DNA from: a virus
Taxonomy: Duplodnaviria > Heunggongvirae > Uroviricota > Caudoviricetes
Virus record (IMG/VR): IMGVR_UViG_2671180439_000003
Direction: 5' to 3' (one strand)
DNA length: 13,208 nt
A program made the translations under genes and the position numbers. The notes under the pieces are model-generated. The model saw only the letters and a list, made by a program, of their open reading frames with translations, made no database searches and was not told where the DNA came from. Of this stretch, positions 1-9,098 are shown one piece after another (the first letter of the stretch is position 1; each line of letters begins with the position of its first letter).

Positions 1-245
1 GTCATCCATATCACCACGTCAAAGGGTGACAGCAGGCTCATAAGACGCCCCAGCGTCGCCATAGTGCGCTCACCGAATACGTGCGCAACAACCGTCTTCC
101 GGAGACTGTCATACGCGTAAAACAGCCAGCGCTGGCGCGATTTAGCCCCGACATAGCCCCACTGTTCGTCCATTTCCGCGCAGACGATGACGTCACTGCC
201 CGGCTGTATGCGCGAGGTTACCGACTGCGGCCTGAGTTTTTTAAG
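1..245 (-). CDS. insB: IS1 InsB frame (C-terminal part of the InsAB' transposase), partial; truncated by the window edge
   Basis: Hand translation of the -1 frame after the A6C motif gives ...[64 protein letters not shown]..., which matches recalled IS1 InsB. The ORF runs off the start of the window. Confidence 0.8.
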
Positions 246-493
246 TGACGTAAAATCGTGTTTAGGCCAACGCCCATAATGCGGGCTGTTGCCCGGCATC
301 CAACGCCATTCATGGCCATATAAATGATTTTCTGGTGCGTACCGGGTTGAGAAGCGGTGTAAGTGAACTGCAGTTGCCATGTTTTACGGCAGTGAGAGCA
401 GAGATAGCGCTGATGTCCGGCGGTGCTTTTGCCGTTACGCACCACCCCGTCAGTAGCTGAACAGGAGGGACAGCTGATAGAAACAGAAGCCAC
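218..493 (-). CDS. insA: IS1 InsA (transposition regulator, N-terminal part of the InsAB' transposase)
   Basis: 91-aa [43 protein letters not shown]... ending ...[11 protein letters not shown], recognised as IS1 InsA with zinc-finger cysteines. It ends just after the A6C slippery site. Confidence 0.95.
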
Positions 494-543
494 TGGAGCA
501 CCTCAAAAACACCATCATACACTAAATCAGTAAGTTGGCAGCA

Positions 544-840
544 TCACCCATCCGAGCATCTGCGTTTCTTCGCGATAGAACGCAGTGAGATACCTATAAC
601 AAAGTGAGCAATGATCAGTTCATATTCTTCTGGTTTATATTTACGCAACCGCACCACACAACCGTCTATCATGATCCCTTCATCATCATCACACTGGAGG
701 CGTGACTTTTTACCGTGTGGTAAAAGCCCCTTGAAGCCTGCCGCGATCGGCTGCCAGTCCACTCCGCTGTTATCTGCTGCTGCCCATGCTCCCCAGCGGT
801 CCAAAACCTCGTACATATCACGCATCAAATCTCTCCACAA
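544..840 (-). CDS. Hypothetical prophage early-operon protein, C-terminally truncated by the IS1 insertion (probable true start is the ATG at 825)
   Basis: ORF ends ...SIAKKRRCSDG with its last codon and TGA stop (546-544) supplied by the IS1 terminal repeat (IS1 boundary at 548). The track start at 840 is TTG; an in-frame ATG with a gagag RBS-like sequence lies at 825-823. Confidence 0.4.
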   Translation of the reverse strand: MWRDLMRDMYEVLDRWGAWAAADNSGVDWQPIAAGFKGLLPHGKKSRLQCDDDEGIMIDGCVVRLRKYKPEEYELIIAHFVIGISLRSIAKKRRCSDG

Positions 841-842
841 AA

Positions 843-1232
843 TCAGGCCAGCACACCAATTGCCAGCGCGCGATCGATAAATCGAAAAATTAGCTCCAGT
901 TGGGAACCATACTTCTCTTCAAATGCCACAGTGTCCACATGCAACTCGTCGTGATGCTTTCTGCACAAAGGCAATACAAAGAGGTCATGCGCTTTTGTAC
1001 CCTGGCGACGCGCCTTACGCGTTAACCAGCCTTCTGCTTCCAGCCGTGCGATAGCCGTTCTGACGGTACTCATCCCCGCGCCAATCTGGCGGGCAATGGT
1101 TTCAATTGATGGCCAGCACACACCTTCGTCATTACTGAAATCAGCCAGGCGGGCCATAATTGCCACACTGGATAATTTCATGCCTGACGCTGCGCAACCA
1201 TCCCATACATAGCCGGTTAATTTAGTGCTCAT
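843..1232 (-). CDS. Phage early-region helix-turn-helix DNA-binding protein (replication-organiser-like N-terminal domain)
   Basis: 129-aa ORF with an HTH-like segment WPSIETIARQIGAGMSTVRTAIARLEAEGWL. Its ATG (1232) overlaps the stop of the upstream gene, as in phage coupled operons. Same strand as the Cro-like gene. Confidence 0.6.
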   Translation of the reverse strand: MSTKLTGYVWDGCAASGMKLSSVAIMARLADFSNDEGVCWPSIETIARQIGAGMSTVRTAIARLEAEGWLTRKARRQGTKAHDLFVLPLCRKHHDELHVDTVAFEEKYGSQLELIFRFIDRALAIGVLA

Positions 1233-1646
1233 GACCGACCTCTATTTCCCTGAATTTACGACGAAACTGTTCGAGCGGGCTGAAGCACTCATGCTCATAG
1301 CCTTCGCGGAGGTAGATAACCCGTTGTGTTTCCGGCTCCCAACGAATGACTCTGACGGGCACTCCGTAGTGATCTTTGAACCAGCGGTTAACTTCTCGCA
1401 AAGGACTGTCTCCTTCTGCCGGTTGAAATCCCCCACAGCCCACTCAGCAAAGCTGTGGGTTACAATTTCCCTGTCACCTGGTACATTCACTGCATAGCAA
1501 TACTCCACCTTCGCTTTTCCACCCGGTACAGGAAGCGCAATCAGTTGCGAGTGACGGTAGTGTGTTGTTATAAACTGTTCATGCGTTAGTTTCTCCACAG
1601 TCACGACACGCCACGGCGCCCGGAGCTGCACACTCGCGGGCGTCAT
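1222..1646 (-). pseudogene. Phage early-operon gene that appears frame-disrupted at a C5/G5 homopolymer (1430-1434); two partial frames (1242-1745 track ORF and 1222-1443) would fuse if the run were G6
   Basis: Frame B reads ...[11 protein letters not shown] and then degenerates into a serine-rich tail. Frame A reads [72 protein letters not shown] and ends with a stop overlapping the next gene's ATG. By hand translation, one extra G in gctgtgggggatttc joins B to A. Confidence 0.35.
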
Positions 1647-2130
1647 TACTTTCTGAAATGCAAAATATTTTGTAGACCAGTGCTGCATGCTCCTGCAGCT
1701 TCGAAATTGAGAGATACAGCTCGTCGTTAATTGCTGTTTTCTCATGCGGTTCCACTACACCGTCTTCAATTGCTGAACGAATCTGTTTTGAATAACTGCC
1801 GATCTGTTCAATGACCTCCAGCAGGCGTTGGTTGATATCGGCGTTGTCCACATCCTCGACATCAGGAAGAGACACAAAGACGCCATTTGCAGACTGCGCC
1901 ACAGCGTCAGCAATGAAGTGAGTTCCACCAGCACGTTGCAAAATCATTGCCCATCCCAGCGGGAAAATCTGATCGCCATCGGCACGAAGGCGGTTAAATA
2001 ATGCGTTCTCTGTTACATCCAGCCAGTCAGCAGCTTCAGCGTACCCCCCCGGCAACGCTGCGATAGTTTTTCTGACAGCTTTCACGTACCACTCAGGCTG
2101 TTTTTCTACTTTCCAGTGATGCTTACCCAC
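1579..2130 (-). CDS. Prophage early protein of unknown function (e14 YmfL-like by position and recollection)
   Basis: 183-aa ORF. GTG start at 2130 is preceded by GGAGG 6 nt upstream and overlaps the Cro-like gene stop by 8 bp. It is second in the leftward early operon. Confidence 0.6.
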
Positions 2131-2383
2131 GGTTCACCTCCTGTTCCTGTGGTTTAAACCCATTCTGGTTTTGGCTAGATTGAAAACGTGCCGGATAAAG
2201 AATCTGCATTTCGCTGACTTCACCCTTAAAAAAATTGGCTAATCGTTCTGCAAGCTCGATAGATGGAATCTGCTCCAGCCTCTCAATACGACTCAACGTC
2301 GCTGGATTGACTTGAACACCCGCAGCAACATGCTGCAAAGTGAAACCATGCGCCTTACGCACATTTCGTAATGGTGATTGCAT
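2123..2383 (-). CDS. Cro-like HTH transcriptional regulator (XRE family)
   Basis: ATG at 2383 preceded by GGAGGG with correct spacing. HTH segment GFTLQHVAAGVQVNPATLSRIE. Divergent from the CI-like repressor across a 97-bp operator-like region. Confidence 0.7.
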   Translation of the reverse strand: MQSPLRNVRKAHGFTLQHVAAGVQVNPATLSRIERLEQIPSIELAERLANFFKGEVSEMQILYPARFQSSQNQNGFKPQEQEVNRG

Positions 2384-2480
2384 ATGCCCTCCAAATATTG
2401 CGCGTTATGCATGTTATTTCACGCAATTATTTTGCGCAAGTTGATTTGCTTATCACGCAATAAAGAAATGTAATAAACGC
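2384..2480. promoter_or_regulatory. Divergent promoter/operator region between the Cro-like and CI-like genes
   Basis: Repeated motif tcacgcaat at 2419-2427 and 2453-2461, palindrome ttgcgcaa at 2432-2439, and related ttgcgcg at 2398-2404. A candidate -35 TTGCTT (2446-2451) and -10 TGTAAT (2469-2474) on the plus strand would place the transcript start at or next to the repressor ATG. Confidence 0.5.
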
Positions 2481-3173
2481 ATGAACATAGGAAACCGAGT
2501 CAGACAACTTCGCCAAGCGAAGAACATGAAAATCGCCGATCTCGCTGAAGCAATAGGAGTAGATGCGGCGAACATCTCGCGCTTAGAAACGGGTAAGCAA
2601 AAACAATTTACCGAACAAACACTGAGTAATATTGCCAAGAGCTTAGGTGTTGATATTGCTGATCTCTTTACCTCTGCCCACAAAAGTAATACTGTATATA
2701 AAAACAGTAATAATGAGGATGTTGCGCAGGTGAAGGATGTGTTCCGTATTGAAATGCTGGATATCAGTGCCAGTGCGGGAAATGGCCTTATCCAGGGCGG
2801 TGATGTCATTGATGTGATTCATGCCATCGAATACAGAACTGATAATGCTGTATCAATGTTCGGCGGACGACCAGCCAATCACATCAAAGTTATCAACGTT
2901 CGTGGGGACAGTATGTGTCCAACCATTGAGCCAGGAGATCTCATCTTCGTTGATATCAGCATCAATCAGTTTGATGGTGATGGTATATATGTCTTTGGTT
3001 TTGATGACAAAATATACGTTAAAAGACTTCAAATGATTCCTGACAAACTGCTGGTGATTTCTGATAACCAGATTTACCGTGAATGGGGAATTACTAGCGA
3101 AAACGAACACCGATTCATGGTCTTTGGAAAGGTCTTAATCAGTCAGTCGCAAACCCTTAAGAGACATAATTAA
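2481..3173 (+). CDS. CI-like phage repressor: N-terminal XRE-type HTH plus C-terminal S24 (LexA/CI-type) autopeptidase domain; resembles e14 CohE
   Basis: 230-aa ORF. HTH MKIADLAEAIGVDAANISRLETGKQ. S24 catalytic serine in VRGDSMCPTIEPGDLIFVD and lysine in KIYVKRLQM. Followed by an intrinsic terminator. Confidence 0.85.
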   Translation: MNIGNRVRQLRQAKNMKIADLAEAIGVDAANISRLETGKQKQFTEQTLSNIAKSLGVDIADLFTSAHKSNTVYKNSNNEDVAQVKDVFRIEMLDISASAGNGLIQGGDVIDVIHAIEYRTDNAVSMFGGRPANHIKVINVRGDSMCPTIEPGDLIFVDISINQFDGDGIYVFGFDDKIYVKRLQMIPDKLLVISDNQIYREWGITSENEHRFMVFGKVLISQSQTLKRHN

Positions 3174-3192
3174 CCTCAATATCCCATCCATC

Positions 3193-3217
3193 GGCCACCT
3201 AAAGGTGGCTTTTTATT
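3193..3217 (+). terminator. Rho-independent terminator downstream of the CI-like repressor gene
   Basis: Hairpin gccacc/ggtggc (3194-3199 and 3204-3209) with a 4-nt loop, followed by tttttatt (3210-3217). Confidence 0.6.
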
Positions 3218-3228
3218 ACCTATAAATT

Positions 3229-3264
3229 TGCATATCTCGCAAATATCACTTGCATATCTCGCAA
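3229..3264 (+). repeat. Two direct copies of the 14-bp sequence tgcatatctcgcaa, 22 bp centre to centre
   Basis: Exact copies at 3229-3242 and 3251-3264, in noncoding DNA just after the repressor terminator. Confidence 0.5.
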
Positions 3265-3429
3265 TTTAATTTTATCTTTTGTTCCAGACCAACTACAGGA
3301 TTACAACAAAATCTGGTTGCAACACGGTGCATGTGTCGTAAGCAGTCAGTAAATGTCAAAAACGAACAGGCAGGACGCCCACGAAGTAGCCGCCTGGGGC
3401 ATATGAAGTCCAGGATGATTCGTTAGCAA

Positions 3430-3453
3430 CAAAAAAGCGTCCTACAGGACGCT
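3430..3453 (-). terminator. Rho-independent terminator on the minus strand, at the 3' end of the Ag43 remnant ORF
   Basis: Stem agcgtcc/ggacgct (3436-3442 and 3447-3453) with loop taca; on the minus strand it is followed by a T6 run (plus-strand aaaaaa at 3430-3435). Confidence 0.5.
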
Positions 3454-4810
3454 TAGCTCTTTAACAATCTGGTCCCCATCAACAAGTAACTGATAACTTG
3501 AGGAGGTGTGAAATGCACAAAACAGAACCAAAAATCGTCGCGCCCGGATGCCCAGACGGAAGCCGGCACGCACATGTTGTGCACTGCCATGCCCGAACTT
3601 CACATAACCGGCGTTATCCTGGCCGTCATCCAGGGAGAGTCCCTGCCAGGTGTACTGCAGTTGCGGCTCCAGCATCAGATTGTCAGTGATACTGAAGAGC
3701 AGACCGGTTTCCAGTGAGCCCAGCCAGCCCCAGCCCCGGGCGCGGAAGTCGTTATTGTCCGATGACGCTTTCATGCTGTGGCGGGTTCCCTGTGCCACAA
3801 TGTCAGCCCACAGGCCGGAGGACGTGTGTGTCAGATTCAGGTATCCGCCCAGGCTGCCGGCATCATCCCGGACCGTGCCGGCGCGGGAACCGTCATCATC
3901 CTTAACATCAACGGAAGAATGGCCTGCAGCACCATATACCCCTGTCGTCAGAGACATACCGGCAACCTCTGTTCTCAGCAGGTCACCCTCCAGACGGACG
4001 AAGCCATAGCTGCCGCTGCTTTCCGGCGTGGCTCCACGGGCAATACCCCCCATTCAGCGTGGTATCCAGTGCGTGACCATGTACAGTCTGGTCGCCGCCG
4101 GCATAAACCACAGTGGTATTTGCCGTTCCTTCAGCAGCCACAATCTGACGACCATTTTTATTGATGGTGGTGCGTACGGCATCTCCGTAGACGGTCTGCC
4201 CTGTATCACCATTTTCTGCATCCGGTCCCCCTTCCGCGCCGGTATTCACAACCGTGTCGGTTGCCATTGCGCCGGATTTGACGGCCTGCCAGCCCTTCTC
4301 ATTAATGACGGTACCCGTTGCAATCCCGCCTTCATGTACCCACTGCTCACCGCCGTTCAGAGTGGTATTCACTGCCTGCCCCTGAAGGCTCTGTCCGCCT
4401 CCGGCACTGATAACCGTGTCTGAAACGCTTCCTCCGGCATTCACTCTCTGAAGACCACCACCGGTGACAGTAGTGTTGTTGGCGGTACCGCCATTTTGTA
4501 TCCATTGGCCGCCGGTATTCGCCTCGTTATCCGGCCCATACTCCAGCCCGGTACTGATGGTCATTCCGTTGGCCGTACCGAGAACAATCTGGTTGTCATG
4601 ATTTGTCAGTGTTCCGCCGCTCACGGTTTCTCCCGCCTGTACGACCGTGTCAGCAGCCAGTGCCGGGACTGATGTGACAGCAGCAAGAGACAGCACAATC
4701 GCCACACCGGCGCATTTTCCCCGTGAGCGGGCCAGTTCGGAAGCCACCACCAGGGTGCCCGTAATGTGATTCCATACCAGCCTGTAGCTGGTGTTCAGAT
4801 GTCGTTTCAT
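3442..4810 (-). pseudogene. flu: Antigen 43 (Ag43) self-associating autotransporter gene, disrupted: N-terminal passenger part, internal deletion/frameshift near 4046-4051, and 3' truncation of the beta-barrel domain
   Basis: N-terminal ORF begins MKRHLNTSYRLVWNHITG... with a long autotransporter signal peptide, then ...AADTVVQAGETVSGG... repeats; ATG at 4810 has an AGGA RBS. The second ORF in another frame contains ...GGIARGATPESSGSYGFVRLEGD...YVKFGHGSAQHVRAGFRLG, then non-barrel sequence with no C-terminal aromatic residue. Total about 1.37 kb, against roughly 3.1 kb recalled for intact flu. Confidence 0.85.
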
Positions 4811-5019
4811 CAGCTTTTCCTTACAGAGGGTGAATAAAAAAGCCGGTACCCACAAATGTGGATACCGGCAGGTACAAAACAGCATGGTCAGATAAAGTGG
4901 TTTTTCCCGGACATAAATGCTTCCCCTCTCTCATCCGCCAGAGAAGTATCAGTCCGTTGTGTGCAATTCCGTTCTGCATGATGAAGAGATTCAACTGCCT
5001 TTTCGCAGGCCATTAACCA

Positions 5020-5182: not shown

Positions 5183-6055
5183 TCAGAAGAAAATCCAGTT
5201 CCATACAGCGCGGGCAACAGAGACCACCGAGTCACGGACGGCACGCAGAACCGTGCGTGCAACAGAGGCAATACAGACGCTCTCCGCCGTGTCAAATATC
5301 CGGTCCACCGCACCGGTAAACTGTTCACGGGCCTGAGACCGGACAGATTCCGTGCGCAGCTCGTCCTGCAGGCGGGTCATCAGGGGACTGGTGGCATGGT
5401 CGGGAAGCGCCGTCATGAGCGCACTGACCAGCGTATCCAGTTCCCAGCCGGTGCGGGCCGATACGGCAACAACCGGATGTACGGGCCGGAACAGACGGAA
5501 TACCGCATCTGTTTTCTCACGAATATTCTGTGCCTGTGCGGGAGAAGGCTGAATGCCGGCCATATCCCATTCATGGCAGGGCTCCGTTTTGTCGGCCTGC
5601 GTCACCACAAACAGCACCTGCTGATGTCCCCGGTGCAGGATGTGTCGCCAGAAATACTCATCCACAGACAGGGCACGGTCATCGGCTTTAATCAGCCACA
5701 GTACCAGGTCAAGTTCAGGCAGAATGTCACGGTACAGGGCTTCATACTCTGCATCCCTGTCCCGGCTCTCGCCCACCCCGGGCAGGTCAGTGATAATCAT
5801 GCTGTGACCGTGGCCACTCAGACGGAAGCGCCGCACTTCCCGGGTGCCGGCGTGAACATCACTGACCGGGGTGACCTCCCCCTGAAACAGTGCATTACAG
5901 AGTGAGGATTTACCGGCCCCGCTTTTACCCATAATGCCAATCACGGGTTCGTGACTGGTGAGTTTACGCAGATGTTCCAGGATGTGACGGGAAAGTGAGT
6001 AAGGCAGGGAAGAAAGTGGTTTTTCAATTGCCTCAATGGCATCAGACGGATTCAT
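5183..6055 (-). CDS. yeeP: YeeP/YkfA/YfjP-family GTPase of unknown function (CP4-type island gene upstream of flu)
   Basis: P-loop GIMGKSGAGKSS, DLPG (G3) and TQAD (G4-like) motifs. Positioned immediately upstream of Ag43 on the same strand, as in CP4-44. Start assigned to the ATG at 6055; the track ORF extends to a non-ATG start at 6094. Confidence 0.75.
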   Translation of the reverse strand: MNPSDAIEAIEKPLSSLPYSLSRHILEHLRKLTSHEPVIGIMGKSGAGKSSLCNALFQGEVTPVSDVHAGTREVRRFRLSGHGHSMIITDLPGVGESRDRDAEYEALYRDILPELDLVLWLIKADDRALSVDEYFWRHILHRGHQQVLFVVTQADKTEPCHEWDMAGIQPSPAQAQNIREKTDAVFRLFRPVHPVVAVSARTGWELDTLVSALMTALPDHATSPLMTRLQDELRTESVRSQAREQFTGAVDRIFDTAESVCIASVARTVLRAVRDSVVSVARAVWNWIFF

Positions 6056-6070
6056 ACATGTATTCCCGGT

Positions 6071-6108
6071 GAAAAAAGACAAAACCCCGCGCACCGGAAA
6101 GGTGGCGG
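6071..6108 (-). terminator. Possible minus-strand intrinsic terminator (GC-rich bulged hairpin plus T-tract) just upstream of the yeeP-like start
   Basis: Plus-strand ccccgcgcaccggaaaggtggcgggg forms a stem of about 10 bp with one bulge. On the minus strand it is followed by a T-rich run (revcomp of gaaaaaagacaaaa at 6071-6084). Confidence 0.35.
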
Positions 6109-7875: not shown

Positions 7876-9098
7876 GCGAGTTGAGTTATCTGGAAAAATT
7901 GCTGGATGGGGTTGAGGTTGAGTGGTTGCCATTGGGGGAAGTCTCAGCCTTAAGAAGAGGCAGAGTTATGTCAAAGGGATATTTAACTGAAAATTTTGGC
8001 CCATATCCTGTCTATAGCTCTCAAACTGCAAATAATGGGAAAATAGGTTCTATCAATACCTTCGATTTTGATGGCGAATATATAAGCTGGACAACAGATG
8101 GCGCAAATGCAGGCACTATGTTCTATCGAACAGGTAAATTTTCAATAACTAATGTTTGCGGCCTGATTACATTAAAAAGTAAATACTCATTAATCTACAA
8201 ATTTCTGTTTTACTGGCTAACAATAGAAGCCAAAAAACATGTTTACTCAGGAATGGGAAACCCCAAGTTAATGAGTCATCAGGTTGAAAATATACCTGTA
8301 CCAATCCCCTGCCCGGATAATCCGGAAAAATCCCTCGCCATCCAGTCTGAAATCGTTCGGATTCTGGACACATTCAGCGCCCTGACAGCAGAACTGACAG
8401 CAGAACTGACAGCAGAGCTTAACATGCGTAAAAAACAATACAACTACTATCGCGACCAGTTGTTGAGTTTTAATACCGAAGATGTTCCACATTTACCTAT
8501 GGGACAAAAAGATATTGGCGAGTTTATCCGGGGTGGTACTTTTCAGAAAAAAGACTTTATAGATGCAGGTGTAGGGTGCATACACTATGGTCAAATCTAT
8601 ACGTATTACGGAACATATACAGAAAAAACAAAAACATATATTTCAACCGCACTTGCAAAAAAATGCAAGAAGGCTCAAAAGGGAGATTTGATTATCGCAA
8701 CTACTAGTGAGAATGATGAGGATGTATGTAAAGCTGTTGCATGGTTAGGCAGTGAAGATATAGCAGTAAGCAGTGATGCCTGTATTTACAAACATAATTT
8801 AAACCCTAAGTATGTCTCATATTTTTTTCAAACAGAACAATTCCAAAATCAAAAAAGACAGTATATTACTGGCGCAAAAGTTCGGCGTGTAAATGCTGAT
8901 AATTTATCTAAGATATTAATTCCAGTTCCTTCTATGGAGATACAGGAACGTATAGTATCCATTCTCGATAAATTCGACACCCTGACAAACTCCATCACTG
9001 AAGGTCTTCCGCGTGAAATCGAGTTGCGCCAGAAACAATACGAATACTACCGTGATTTACTGTTCAGTTTCCCGAAACCTGAAACTGCCAGTAATTAA
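7872..9098 (+). CDS. hsdS: Type I R-M specificity subunit HsdS, type IC (EcoR124 family) architecture with two target-recognition domains and a central TAEL-repeat region
   Basis: 408-aa ORF. Conserved N-terminus [23 protein letters not shown], central [58 protein letters not shown]-terminal [40 protein letters not shown]. Two visibly AT-rich variable segments between the conserved blocks. Confidence 0.95.
8385..8420 (+). repeat. Tandem 12-bp repeat (acagcagaactg twice, then acagcagagctt) encoding [12 protein letters not shown] in the HsdS central conserved region
   Basis: Read directly: in-frame copies at 8385-8396, 8397-8408 and 8409-8420; the third has two synonymous changes. Confidence 0.9.

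Follow-up and report, generated by a model that had tools for sequence, protein, structure and literature searches.

Shigella phage SfII is a viable lambdoid phage with myovirus morphology that was isolated by induction from a lysogen (PMC3772137). Phages of the SfII/e14 family join lambda-like regulation to a myovirus body and integrate at thrW or icd. Among their described relatives is e14 of Escherichia coli K-12, a defective prophage with the gene order ymfK-ymfT-ymfL-ymfM-oweE. Here, we analyze a further member in a 13,208-nt stretch of viral DNA (IMG/VR record IMGVR_UViG_2671180439_000003; hereafter the window, to which all coordinates refer unless another record is named), in which a stranded lambdoid-type prophage piece spans positions 549–3546. 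An original prediction had described this piece as an orphan immunity module with a CI-like repressor, Cro, and early genes. We consider it highly probable that the piece is a fragment of a recently decayed temperate phage of the SfII/e14 family, stranded by three events, whose immunity cassette is intact and encodes a CI predicted to repress phages of SfII immunity.

The closest described relative of the fragment is SfII itself (KC736978 / NC_021857), which is 98.8% identical to positions 998–3424 of the window. Over these 2.4 kb the two share the same cI, an identical Cro, a YmfL with one change, the same predicted operators and terminator, and the same predicted pair of left operators. The CI proteins agree in 229 of 230 residues (99.6%), the sole change being V159I, and isoleucine also occupies this position in the CI of phage mEp460. 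The right operator region (OR) is identical, with one change each in the terminator loop and in the second left operator, OL2. This near-identity of cI, cro, and operators places the fragment in the SfII-type immunity group. The repressor is intact, departing from that of a viable, inducible phage by V159I alone, and the module is an orphan immunity module as had been proposed. Outside the cassette, SfII has the int/xis, gtr, replication, nin, lysis, and structural genes of a complete inducible phage, whereas the fragment is deleted or truncated, and its Q and DUF968 allele differs from that of SfII (79% nucleotide identity). A complete prophage inserted at icd in TUM9868, with intE/xisE plus lysis, head, and contractile-tail genes, shares 98.9% identity with positions 998–3556. 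The P276M prophage, 98.3% identical including the DUF968 end, was rejected as a parent, being itself rearranged with an O::KilA-N fusion.

The repressor gene cI (2481–3173, plus strand) is intact and encodes 230 amino acids, with an N-terminal helix-turn-helix (HTH) domain, a linker that includes Ala99-Gly100, and an S24 domain with Ser144 and Lys181. Pfam identifies HTH_3 (E 1.2e-11), HTH_26 (E 1.8e-12; residues 7–64), and Peptidase_S24 (PF00717; E 5.5e-19). UmuD' is the best match to CI among solved structures, and its catalytic serine and lysine (motifs GDSM and VKKL) align with Ser144 (GDSM) and Lys181 (YVKRL) of CI; we take the UmuD' residues to be Ser60 and Lys97 of UmuD. The sole Ala-Gly pair in CI is A99-G100, lying in the interdomain linker where SASA meets GNG, and we infer that it is the cleavage site. 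The HTH, the Ser/Lys S24 domain, and the linker Ala-Gly that mark self-cleaving repressors of the LexA/lambda-CI type (MEROPS S24) are all found here, and the claim that CI keeps both its HTH and its S24 dyad stands on the Pfam matches and the UmuD' alignment. Divergently from cI, at a distance of 97 bp, lies an intact cro-like HTH gene of 86 codons (2123–2383, minus strand; Pfam HTH_3, E 5e-10; 100% identical to SfII Cro).

The interval between the two genes is the predicted OR (2384–2480). It holds one exact TTGC-N7-GCAA site (2446–2460) and degenerate copies at 2398–2412, 2412–2426, and 2425–2439. The window contains five exact copies of this motif against 0.48 expected, a count that none of 200 shuffles reached, and cI is flanked by three of these copies (at 2446, 3228, and 3250). 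The two beyond cI form a predicted left operator pair (OL; 3228–3264, plus strand) consisting of two exact TTGCATATCTCGCAA copies at 3228–3242 and 3250–3264. This pair is kept in SfII, TUM9868, AR437, and mEp460, and the OR half-sites are kept in the AR437 and mEp460 cassettes, which differ by 7 to 10% (90–93% identity). Between cI and OL is an intrinsic terminator (3193–3218, plus strand) that was found by terminator scan, folds at −11.9 kcal/mol (z-score −2.6), and is annotated as a terminator in SfII. With divergent cI and cro, a region of several predicted operators between them, and a second predicted cluster beyond cI, the locus has the anatomy of a lambdoid immunity module; the divergent pair with an operator-like intergenic region that had been proposed now has coordinates, a spacing, and enriched sites.

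All promoter assignments were made by eye. A putative PRM-like cI promoter reads TTGCTT-17-TGTAAT and would start its transcript at the cI ATG, as lambda PRM does. A second putative promoter, overlapping the left operators and directed away from cI, has a −35 TTGCAT at 3250 and a −10 TATCTT at 3273. Some findings weigh against a functional reading of the cassette. The hexamers assigned to PR, PRM, and PL are weaker than consensus, and a consensus promoter scan returned no sigma-70 promoter in 2384–2480, in 3220–3290, or around the LexA box described below. V159I, a conservative change, sits between the catalytic serine and lysine. Finally, about 99% identity to intact phages leaves too little time for decay, so that the intactness of the cassette says nothing on selection or function.

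The window consists of E. coli DNA. It aligns end to end with the chromosomes of two strains, PCN061 (a porcine extraintestinal pathogenic strain; 99.80%) and CH4784 (a human isolate; 99.87%), and is identical to neither, hence derives from a third strain closely related to both. On the left, the fragment abuts the right end of a partial IS1 (1–548; insA at 218–493, minus strand), whose terminal inverted repeat has its last base at exactly 548 and truncates Q of the phage, as proposed for the leftward operon; 480–548 is the IS1 end, where RefSeq annotates an IS1A transposase in both strains. The antiterminator Q pseudogene (549–825, minus strand) keeps ~93 of 119 codons, its C terminus having been lost to IS1. 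It matches Pfam Phage_antitermQ at profile positions 1–92 of 118 (E 2.4e-37) and is 91% identical to TUM9868 Q over 93 amino acids. An IS1-associated rearrangement would have removed everything past Q codon 93.

A second event lies inside the fragment. A single ORF of 129 codons (O'::'DUF968; 843–1232, minus strand) matches both Pfam HTH_36 and DUF968 and consists of the first 77 codons of an O-like replication initiator (HTH_36) followed by the last 52 codons of a DUF968/HNH gene. The two parts meet at a deletion junction at 998–1002 with a 5-bp overlap. BLAST places the DNA lost between the O-like gene and DUF968 at 4212 bp relative to SfII and 3576 bp relative to TUM9868, and an illegitimate deletion at the 5-bp overlap probably produced the fusion. 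On the right, a remnant of the early-left leader (3265–3549, plus strand; ~290 bp, with a hairpin at 3435–3454 by folding) ends in the truncated beta-domain of an Ag43/Cah autotransporter pseudogene. Phage homology persists until 3549 and Ag43 homology begins at 3546, leaving an overlap of ~4 bp, at which an illegitimate join would have attached the leader to the pseudogene; by blastn, homology to TUM9868 and to a sibling prophage in PCN061 extends to ~3556. The predicted run into Ag43 DNA is thus real, with the last phage base at ~3546–3549 rather than at about 3530. An Rfam scan of 400–3700 with E values up to 1 returned a single chance-level match only.

What survives intact is the cassette at ~2156–3360 (cro, OR, cI, terminator, and OL/PL), together with ymfL and a DUF4222 gene. 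The ymfL gene (1579–2130, minus strand; Pfam Phage_CP76, E 1.5e-13) encodes a CII-like regulator of 183 amino acids that is 99.5% identical to SfII cII/YmfL and 95% identical to YmfL of K-12. The early genes of the original prediction are present; not all of them are intact, given the O'::'DUF968 deletion-fusion pseudogene and a 2-bp insertion in ymfM. Integrase and structural genes are lacking, as noted before, from the window, and none adjoins the fragment in PCN061 or CH4784. Devoid of integration, replication, lysis, and morphogenesis genes and bounded by rearrangement junctions, the piece is a defective prophage remnant. It cannot excise, replicate, lyse, or build particles, and its late-transcription functions are also absent or broken. 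The internal deletion, the second operator pair, the LexA box in cI, and the sibling prophage of PCN061 go beyond what the original prediction contained.

If the fragment behaves as lambda and SfII do, CI expressed from the putative OR promoter would occupy the TTGC-N7-GCAA sites that flank its gene. Bound CI would shut down the cro-ymfL-ymfM/DUF4222 operon as well as the putative leftward promoter, and an infecting phage of SfII immunity would be repressed too. DNA damage would lead to RecA-stimulated self-cleavage of CI at Ala99-Gly100, and LexA would probably sit on a umuDC-type box inside cI. Superinfection immunity and RecA-dependent cleavage are both plausible on this analogy.

Like lambda, the fragment has divergent cI and cro, predicted operator clusters on both sides of cI, a cII-like gene after cro, and an S24 repressor of the self-cleaving type; its putative leftward promoter points, as in lambda, in the same direction as cI. 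Unlike lambda, its operators are 15-bp TTGC-N7-GCAA sites without sequence similarity to those of the phage, it has neither rexAB nor a recognizable N, and its cI contains an internal LexA box, which lambda cI does not. The comparison with e14, whose early region the fragment had been said to resemble, divides in two. The layout, the defective state, and a truncated replication gene are shared, and both K-12 YmfL and K-12 YmfM (over 109 amino acids) are 95% identical to the window copies. The immunity genes are unrelated: YmfK matches CI at 38% over 39 residues only, and YmfT has no match to Cro, which rules out e14 as the source. In addition, e14 keeps intE/xisE and sits in icd, whereas the fragment lies near ykgL/fdeC without an integrase. 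On sequence grounds, the module is best described as SfII immunity on an e14/SfII-family backbone.

The whole module is covered in 2 of 5426 complete E. coli genomes, those of PCN061 and CH4784, each with a single copy of cI, and the Ag43 junction is spanned by 2 records only. Homologues of cI are far more widespread, being found in 1040 of the 5426 genomes (~19%), with cI at least 99% identical in 397 records; phages of the same immunity type are common for this reason. Such rarity, together with 98.8 to 99% identity to prophages that are intact, suggests recent decay and provides no evidence of selection; insofar as it implied selection, the description of the repressor as retained is not supported. 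The same rarity and near-identity fit an inert relic, that is, young debris in which cI may be made without measurable consequence for the host and which drift will remove or degrade. Ongoing decay is likewise indicated by the three independent truncating or deleting events and by a 2-bp insertion private to the window. However, a cI-OR cassette that regulates itself and matches a working phage exactly is normally expressed regardless of its location, and the immunity type is common enough that some immunity phenotype is likely even without selection; we consider complete inertness rather unlikely. As an orphan immunity module the fragment is nonetheless ordinary and of little importance. Repressors that outlast their prophage are well known, and the present case is rare and young, with its genes individually annotated in RefSeq already. 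The most it would predict is resistance of the lineage to common SfII-immunity phages and donation of the cassette to a related neighboring prophage.

Such a neighbor exists in PCN061, where a complete sibling prophage of the SfII/e14 family occupies thrW; it has the orientation of the fragment and lies 27 kb away from it (record positions 264389 to ~299150; locus L094, 2390–37150). It matches window positions 998–2155 at 96.8% and 3361–3556 at 96.4%, with nothing in between, and its repressor, Cro, and operators differ from those of the fragment. From this comparison, the exchangeable immunity cassette corresponds to window positions ~2156–3360, and the two elements are of different immunity type. 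Recombination between them could swap immunity or delete ~58 kb. An SfII-type cro is present in 24 of 80 IMG/VR loci whose ymfL and DUF4222 are near-identical, and other immunity types in the remaining 56, a pattern that shows mosaic exchange of immunity cassettes in nature. The operator motif follows cro in these loci (24 of 24 against 0 of 56), which we set aside as functional evidence, since the association is trivial for a motif that belongs to the swapped cassette. The fragment might accordingly be seen mainly as a reservoir from which related phages could acquire another immunity cassette, a role favored by the homology on both sides of the cassette (1.16 kb and 0.2 kb) and by the natural exchange among the 80 loci. 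Yet the left-hand homology is short (~200 bp), no hybrid phage was observed, and donation would be a consequence rather than a function, one compatible with a stranded fragment whose cassette is intact. As the principal account of the locus, we find it unlikely.

Repressors can also survive in dead prophages beside genes that block division or growth when derepressed, as in Rac (RacR-YdaS/YdaT) and Qin (DicA-DicB). An addiction of this kind would keep cI because it silences a harmful gene of the cro operon, ymfM and/or ymfL, in the manner of RacR with ydaS/ydaT or DicA with dicB. Downstream of cro, the operon does hold a ymfM with 95% identity to its e14 counterpart, expression of which causes filamentation (bioRxiv 10.1101/2020.11.19.390815). 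In the window, ymfM (1242–1582, minus strand), the homologue of this SOS-inducible division inhibitor of e14, is broken by a TA insertion at 1569–1570, so that it reads MNSL-stop. That ymfM alone is knocked out, and by a private insertion, is how relief of constraint would look. The insertion is absent from PCN061, CH4784, and 2606 other E. coli genomes (5426 searched), from IMG/VR, and from a metagenome scan, and either arose very recently by mutation or reflects an error in sequencing. That it could be such an error counts against addiction; in addition, ymfM is intact in PCN061 and CH4784, e14 lysogens tolerate SOS induction of ymfM, and the fragment is too young to show retention. The Rac and Qin modules are old and widespread, and RacR is essential, whereas the fragment is confined to two genomes and its repressor is of the S24 type and predicted to be SOS-cleavable. 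We regard addiction-type retention as quite improbable. An assembly artefact, or a piece of a complete contiguous prophage, had to be considered for a window of only 13 kb with insertion sequences at both flanks, but deserves almost no credence: nothing was found in its favor, and the IS1-Q', internal-deletion, and Ag43 junctions are all shared by the independently assembled chromosomes of PCN061 and CH4784, with chromosomal genes beyond them.

Two by-products of the analysis, a LexA box inside cI and the overlap of ymfM with DUF4222, could matter more than the immunity module. The LexA (SOS) box TACTGTATATAAAAACAGTA occupies 2690–2709 (plus strand), corresponding to cI codons 70–77 in the interdomain linker, and belongs to an element spanning 2667–2709. 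It matches the LexA consensus (CTGT-N8-ACAG; TACTGTATATATATACAGTA) at 18 of 20 positions, as expected of a site of the LexA regulon, and is the sole match in the window at up to three mismatches; none occurred in 200 shuffles. All 20 positions are identical to the umuDC (umuD) and sbmC SOS boxes tabulated in PMC3009722. In addition, exactly 17 nt separate the hexamer TTTACC (2667–2672) from TACTGT downstream of it, as in the layout of the umuDC promoter (TTGACA, 17 nt, TACTGT; oligonucleotide in PMC9074414).

The box, a TTTAC(C/A) hexamer, and the spacing recur at the same position of the gene in five CI lineages that share 67 to 96% amino acid identity, namely SfII, mEp460/AR437, Salmonella 118970_sal3 gp116, Klebsiella ST147-VIM1phi7.2, and Flotzy/Eeyore. 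All three are missing where CI identity falls to 49% or below. Among 31 close relatives, a single spacer base is the sole variable position of the 20-mer, whereas the codons that flank it are the most variable of the gene. Across the five lineages, all three amino acid-invariant codons within the box (ACT, GTA, and AGT) are also codon-invariant, compared with 11 of 64 elsewhere. The residue before the final Ser of the box varies between N, H, and S, yet the C at its third position is always kept, which preserves CAG. These patterns argue that the box is conserved at the DNA level, and because of this conservation binding of LexA to it is very likely.

What LexA would do there is more speculative. 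The idea we favor, although we think it has a rather low chance of being right, is that the cI linker of SfII, mEp460, several Stx2a phages, and the Salmonella and Klebsiella relatives holds a working umuDC-type SOS promoter/operator. Cleavage of LexA would then release an internal transcript encoding only the C-terminal S24/dimerization domain, whose product would mix with full-length CI and weaken repression. On this reading, the product would be UmuD-sized, start near Val84–Val88, and have the Ala-Gly 12 to 16 residues in. Such a fragment could poison CI dimers, making it an anti-repressor nested in the repressor gene. In most lineages, in-frame GTG codons are preceded at 8 to 10 nt by Shine–Dalgarno-like motifs; those in Klebsiella are unconvincing. 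The likeness to umuDC extends from the 20-bp box through the −35-like hexamer at 17 nt from TACTGT to a downstream UmuD-sized S24 domain with a predicted cleavage site near its N terminus. The cI element differs in lying inside an ORF, in its weaker −35 (TTTACC), and in having neither a separate downstream gene nor umuC, and the promoter is putative. Alternatively, the box may act as a roadblock to transcription of cI, or it may be a maintained relic of a umuD-like ancestor, in line with the structural match to UmuD'. A promoter on the minus strand at the box is disfavored, the −35 position reading CACCTG (0 of 6).

No description of the cI box was found in the literature, and searches on SfII immunity and operators or on LexA boxes inside phage repressor genes returned nothing relevant. 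The repressor gene of a widespread phage family carries an operator identical to that of umuDC; if functional, it would be an undescribed LexA input to a CI-type switch. Induction would then have a second, LexA-timed input, and the orphan module would be a direct LexA target that makes a C-terminal CI fragment during SOS. A stand-alone UmuD-like relative of the C-terminal domain was also sought. The candidate, a match to CI residues 86–230 in Citrobacter phage Omnitron, proved to be a full-length CI with another N-terminal domain and no LexA box. This Omnitron CI (locus L102, 583–1338) shares only the C-terminal domain (50% identity) and joins it to an unrelated N-terminal domain, an instance of domain shuffling at the linker, near the position of the LexA box. 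Elsewhere in two related prophages (L094, 14306–14325; L003, 16361–16380), LexA-like boxes with four mismatches to consensus lie ~8 nt inside the 5′ end of a prophage DNA methyltransferase gene downstream of Q, which suggests that this gene may be under SOS control.

The second by-product concerns the gene credited with the SOS-inducible filamentation of e14. The 3′ half of the K-12-style ymfM ORF (112 codons) contains the whole DUF4222 ORF in the +1 frame. In the window, the DUF4222 gene (1222–1401, minus strand; 59 amino acids, Pfam E 1.3e-18) is intact, begins with a TTG behind an AAGGAG ribosome-binding site, and overlaps the start of the O-like gene at its 3′ end; the TA insertion that truncates ymfM after four codons leaves it untouched. 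Of the two, RefSeq annotates ymfM in K-12, whereas in other strains it annotates DUF4222. We read the overlap also in loci L005 (8823–9161), L088, L089, L091, L092, L093, and L007. Related loci found by DUF4222 were only 97 to 100% identical, too close for a test of reading frames, and tblastn against phages was used instead.

When diverged phages are compared, the overlap differs at third positions of DUF4222 codons; between K-12 and Klebsiella, codon positions 1, 2, and 3 differ 5, 1, and 25 times, respectively. Identity across diverged phages is 0.67 to 0.90 for DUF4222 and 0.31 to 0.49 in the ymfM frame, which is no better than in the non-coding third frame. The 80 IMG/VR loci encode 4 protein variants of DUF4222 versus 27 of YmfM, whose variation falls nearly all in residues 62–112. 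Nevertheless, the ymfM frame is open in four diverged lineages, versus 3 to 8% expected under random synonymous codons; a Serratia phage without the upstream ORF has three stops in this frame, as by chance. The first ~58 codons of ymfM are conserved, and Yersinia phage YeP3 has them as a separate ORF of 53 codons. DUF4222 is under strong purifying selection, and the overlapping half of YmfM evolves like non-coding sequence yet stays open. Both frames look translated, with constraint only on DUF4222 and on the N-terminal half of YmfM.

The filamentation study cloned the whole ymfM ORF and reported no truncation or frameshift control (bioRxiv 10.1101/2020.11.19.390815), so the nested DUF4222 would have been co-expressed. 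The credited gene thus shares its DNA with a much better conserved one, and the published constructs could not separate the two. In phages of the mEp460 type (mEp460 gp41; L007, 1861–3012) and in Salmonella phages (L093, 1358–2500), a ymfM-like frame runs through DUF4222 into a Rha/antirepressor gene and is annotated as a single protein of ~380 amino acids; Rha itself probably starts only after DUF4222.

The window begins within IS1, and DNA to the left of it was read in PCN061 and CH4784 only. There, truncated ykgL follows in PCN061 and truncated fdeC in CH4784, a difference that points to IS1-mediated rearrangement after the truncation of Q. The ykgL-fdeC block is inverted between PCN061 (L001, 19064–19945) and CH4784 (L006, 7106–11945). 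To the right of the fragment, the Ag43/Cah pseudogene (3548–4885) keeps its signal peptide and AIDA repeats, is frameshifted near 3983–4053, and has its beta-barrel cut at profile position 181 of 255. Beside it lies an intact YeeP-like GTPase gene (5183–6094), a pairing typical of CP4-type islands, followed by the type I restriction genes hsdM-hsdS-hsdR and an IS5-family element. In the window and in CH4784, HsdS has three TAEL repeats in its central part (8382–8393), versus two in PCN061; in type IC systems such as EcoR124I/II, a change in the number of such repeats alters the target spacing.

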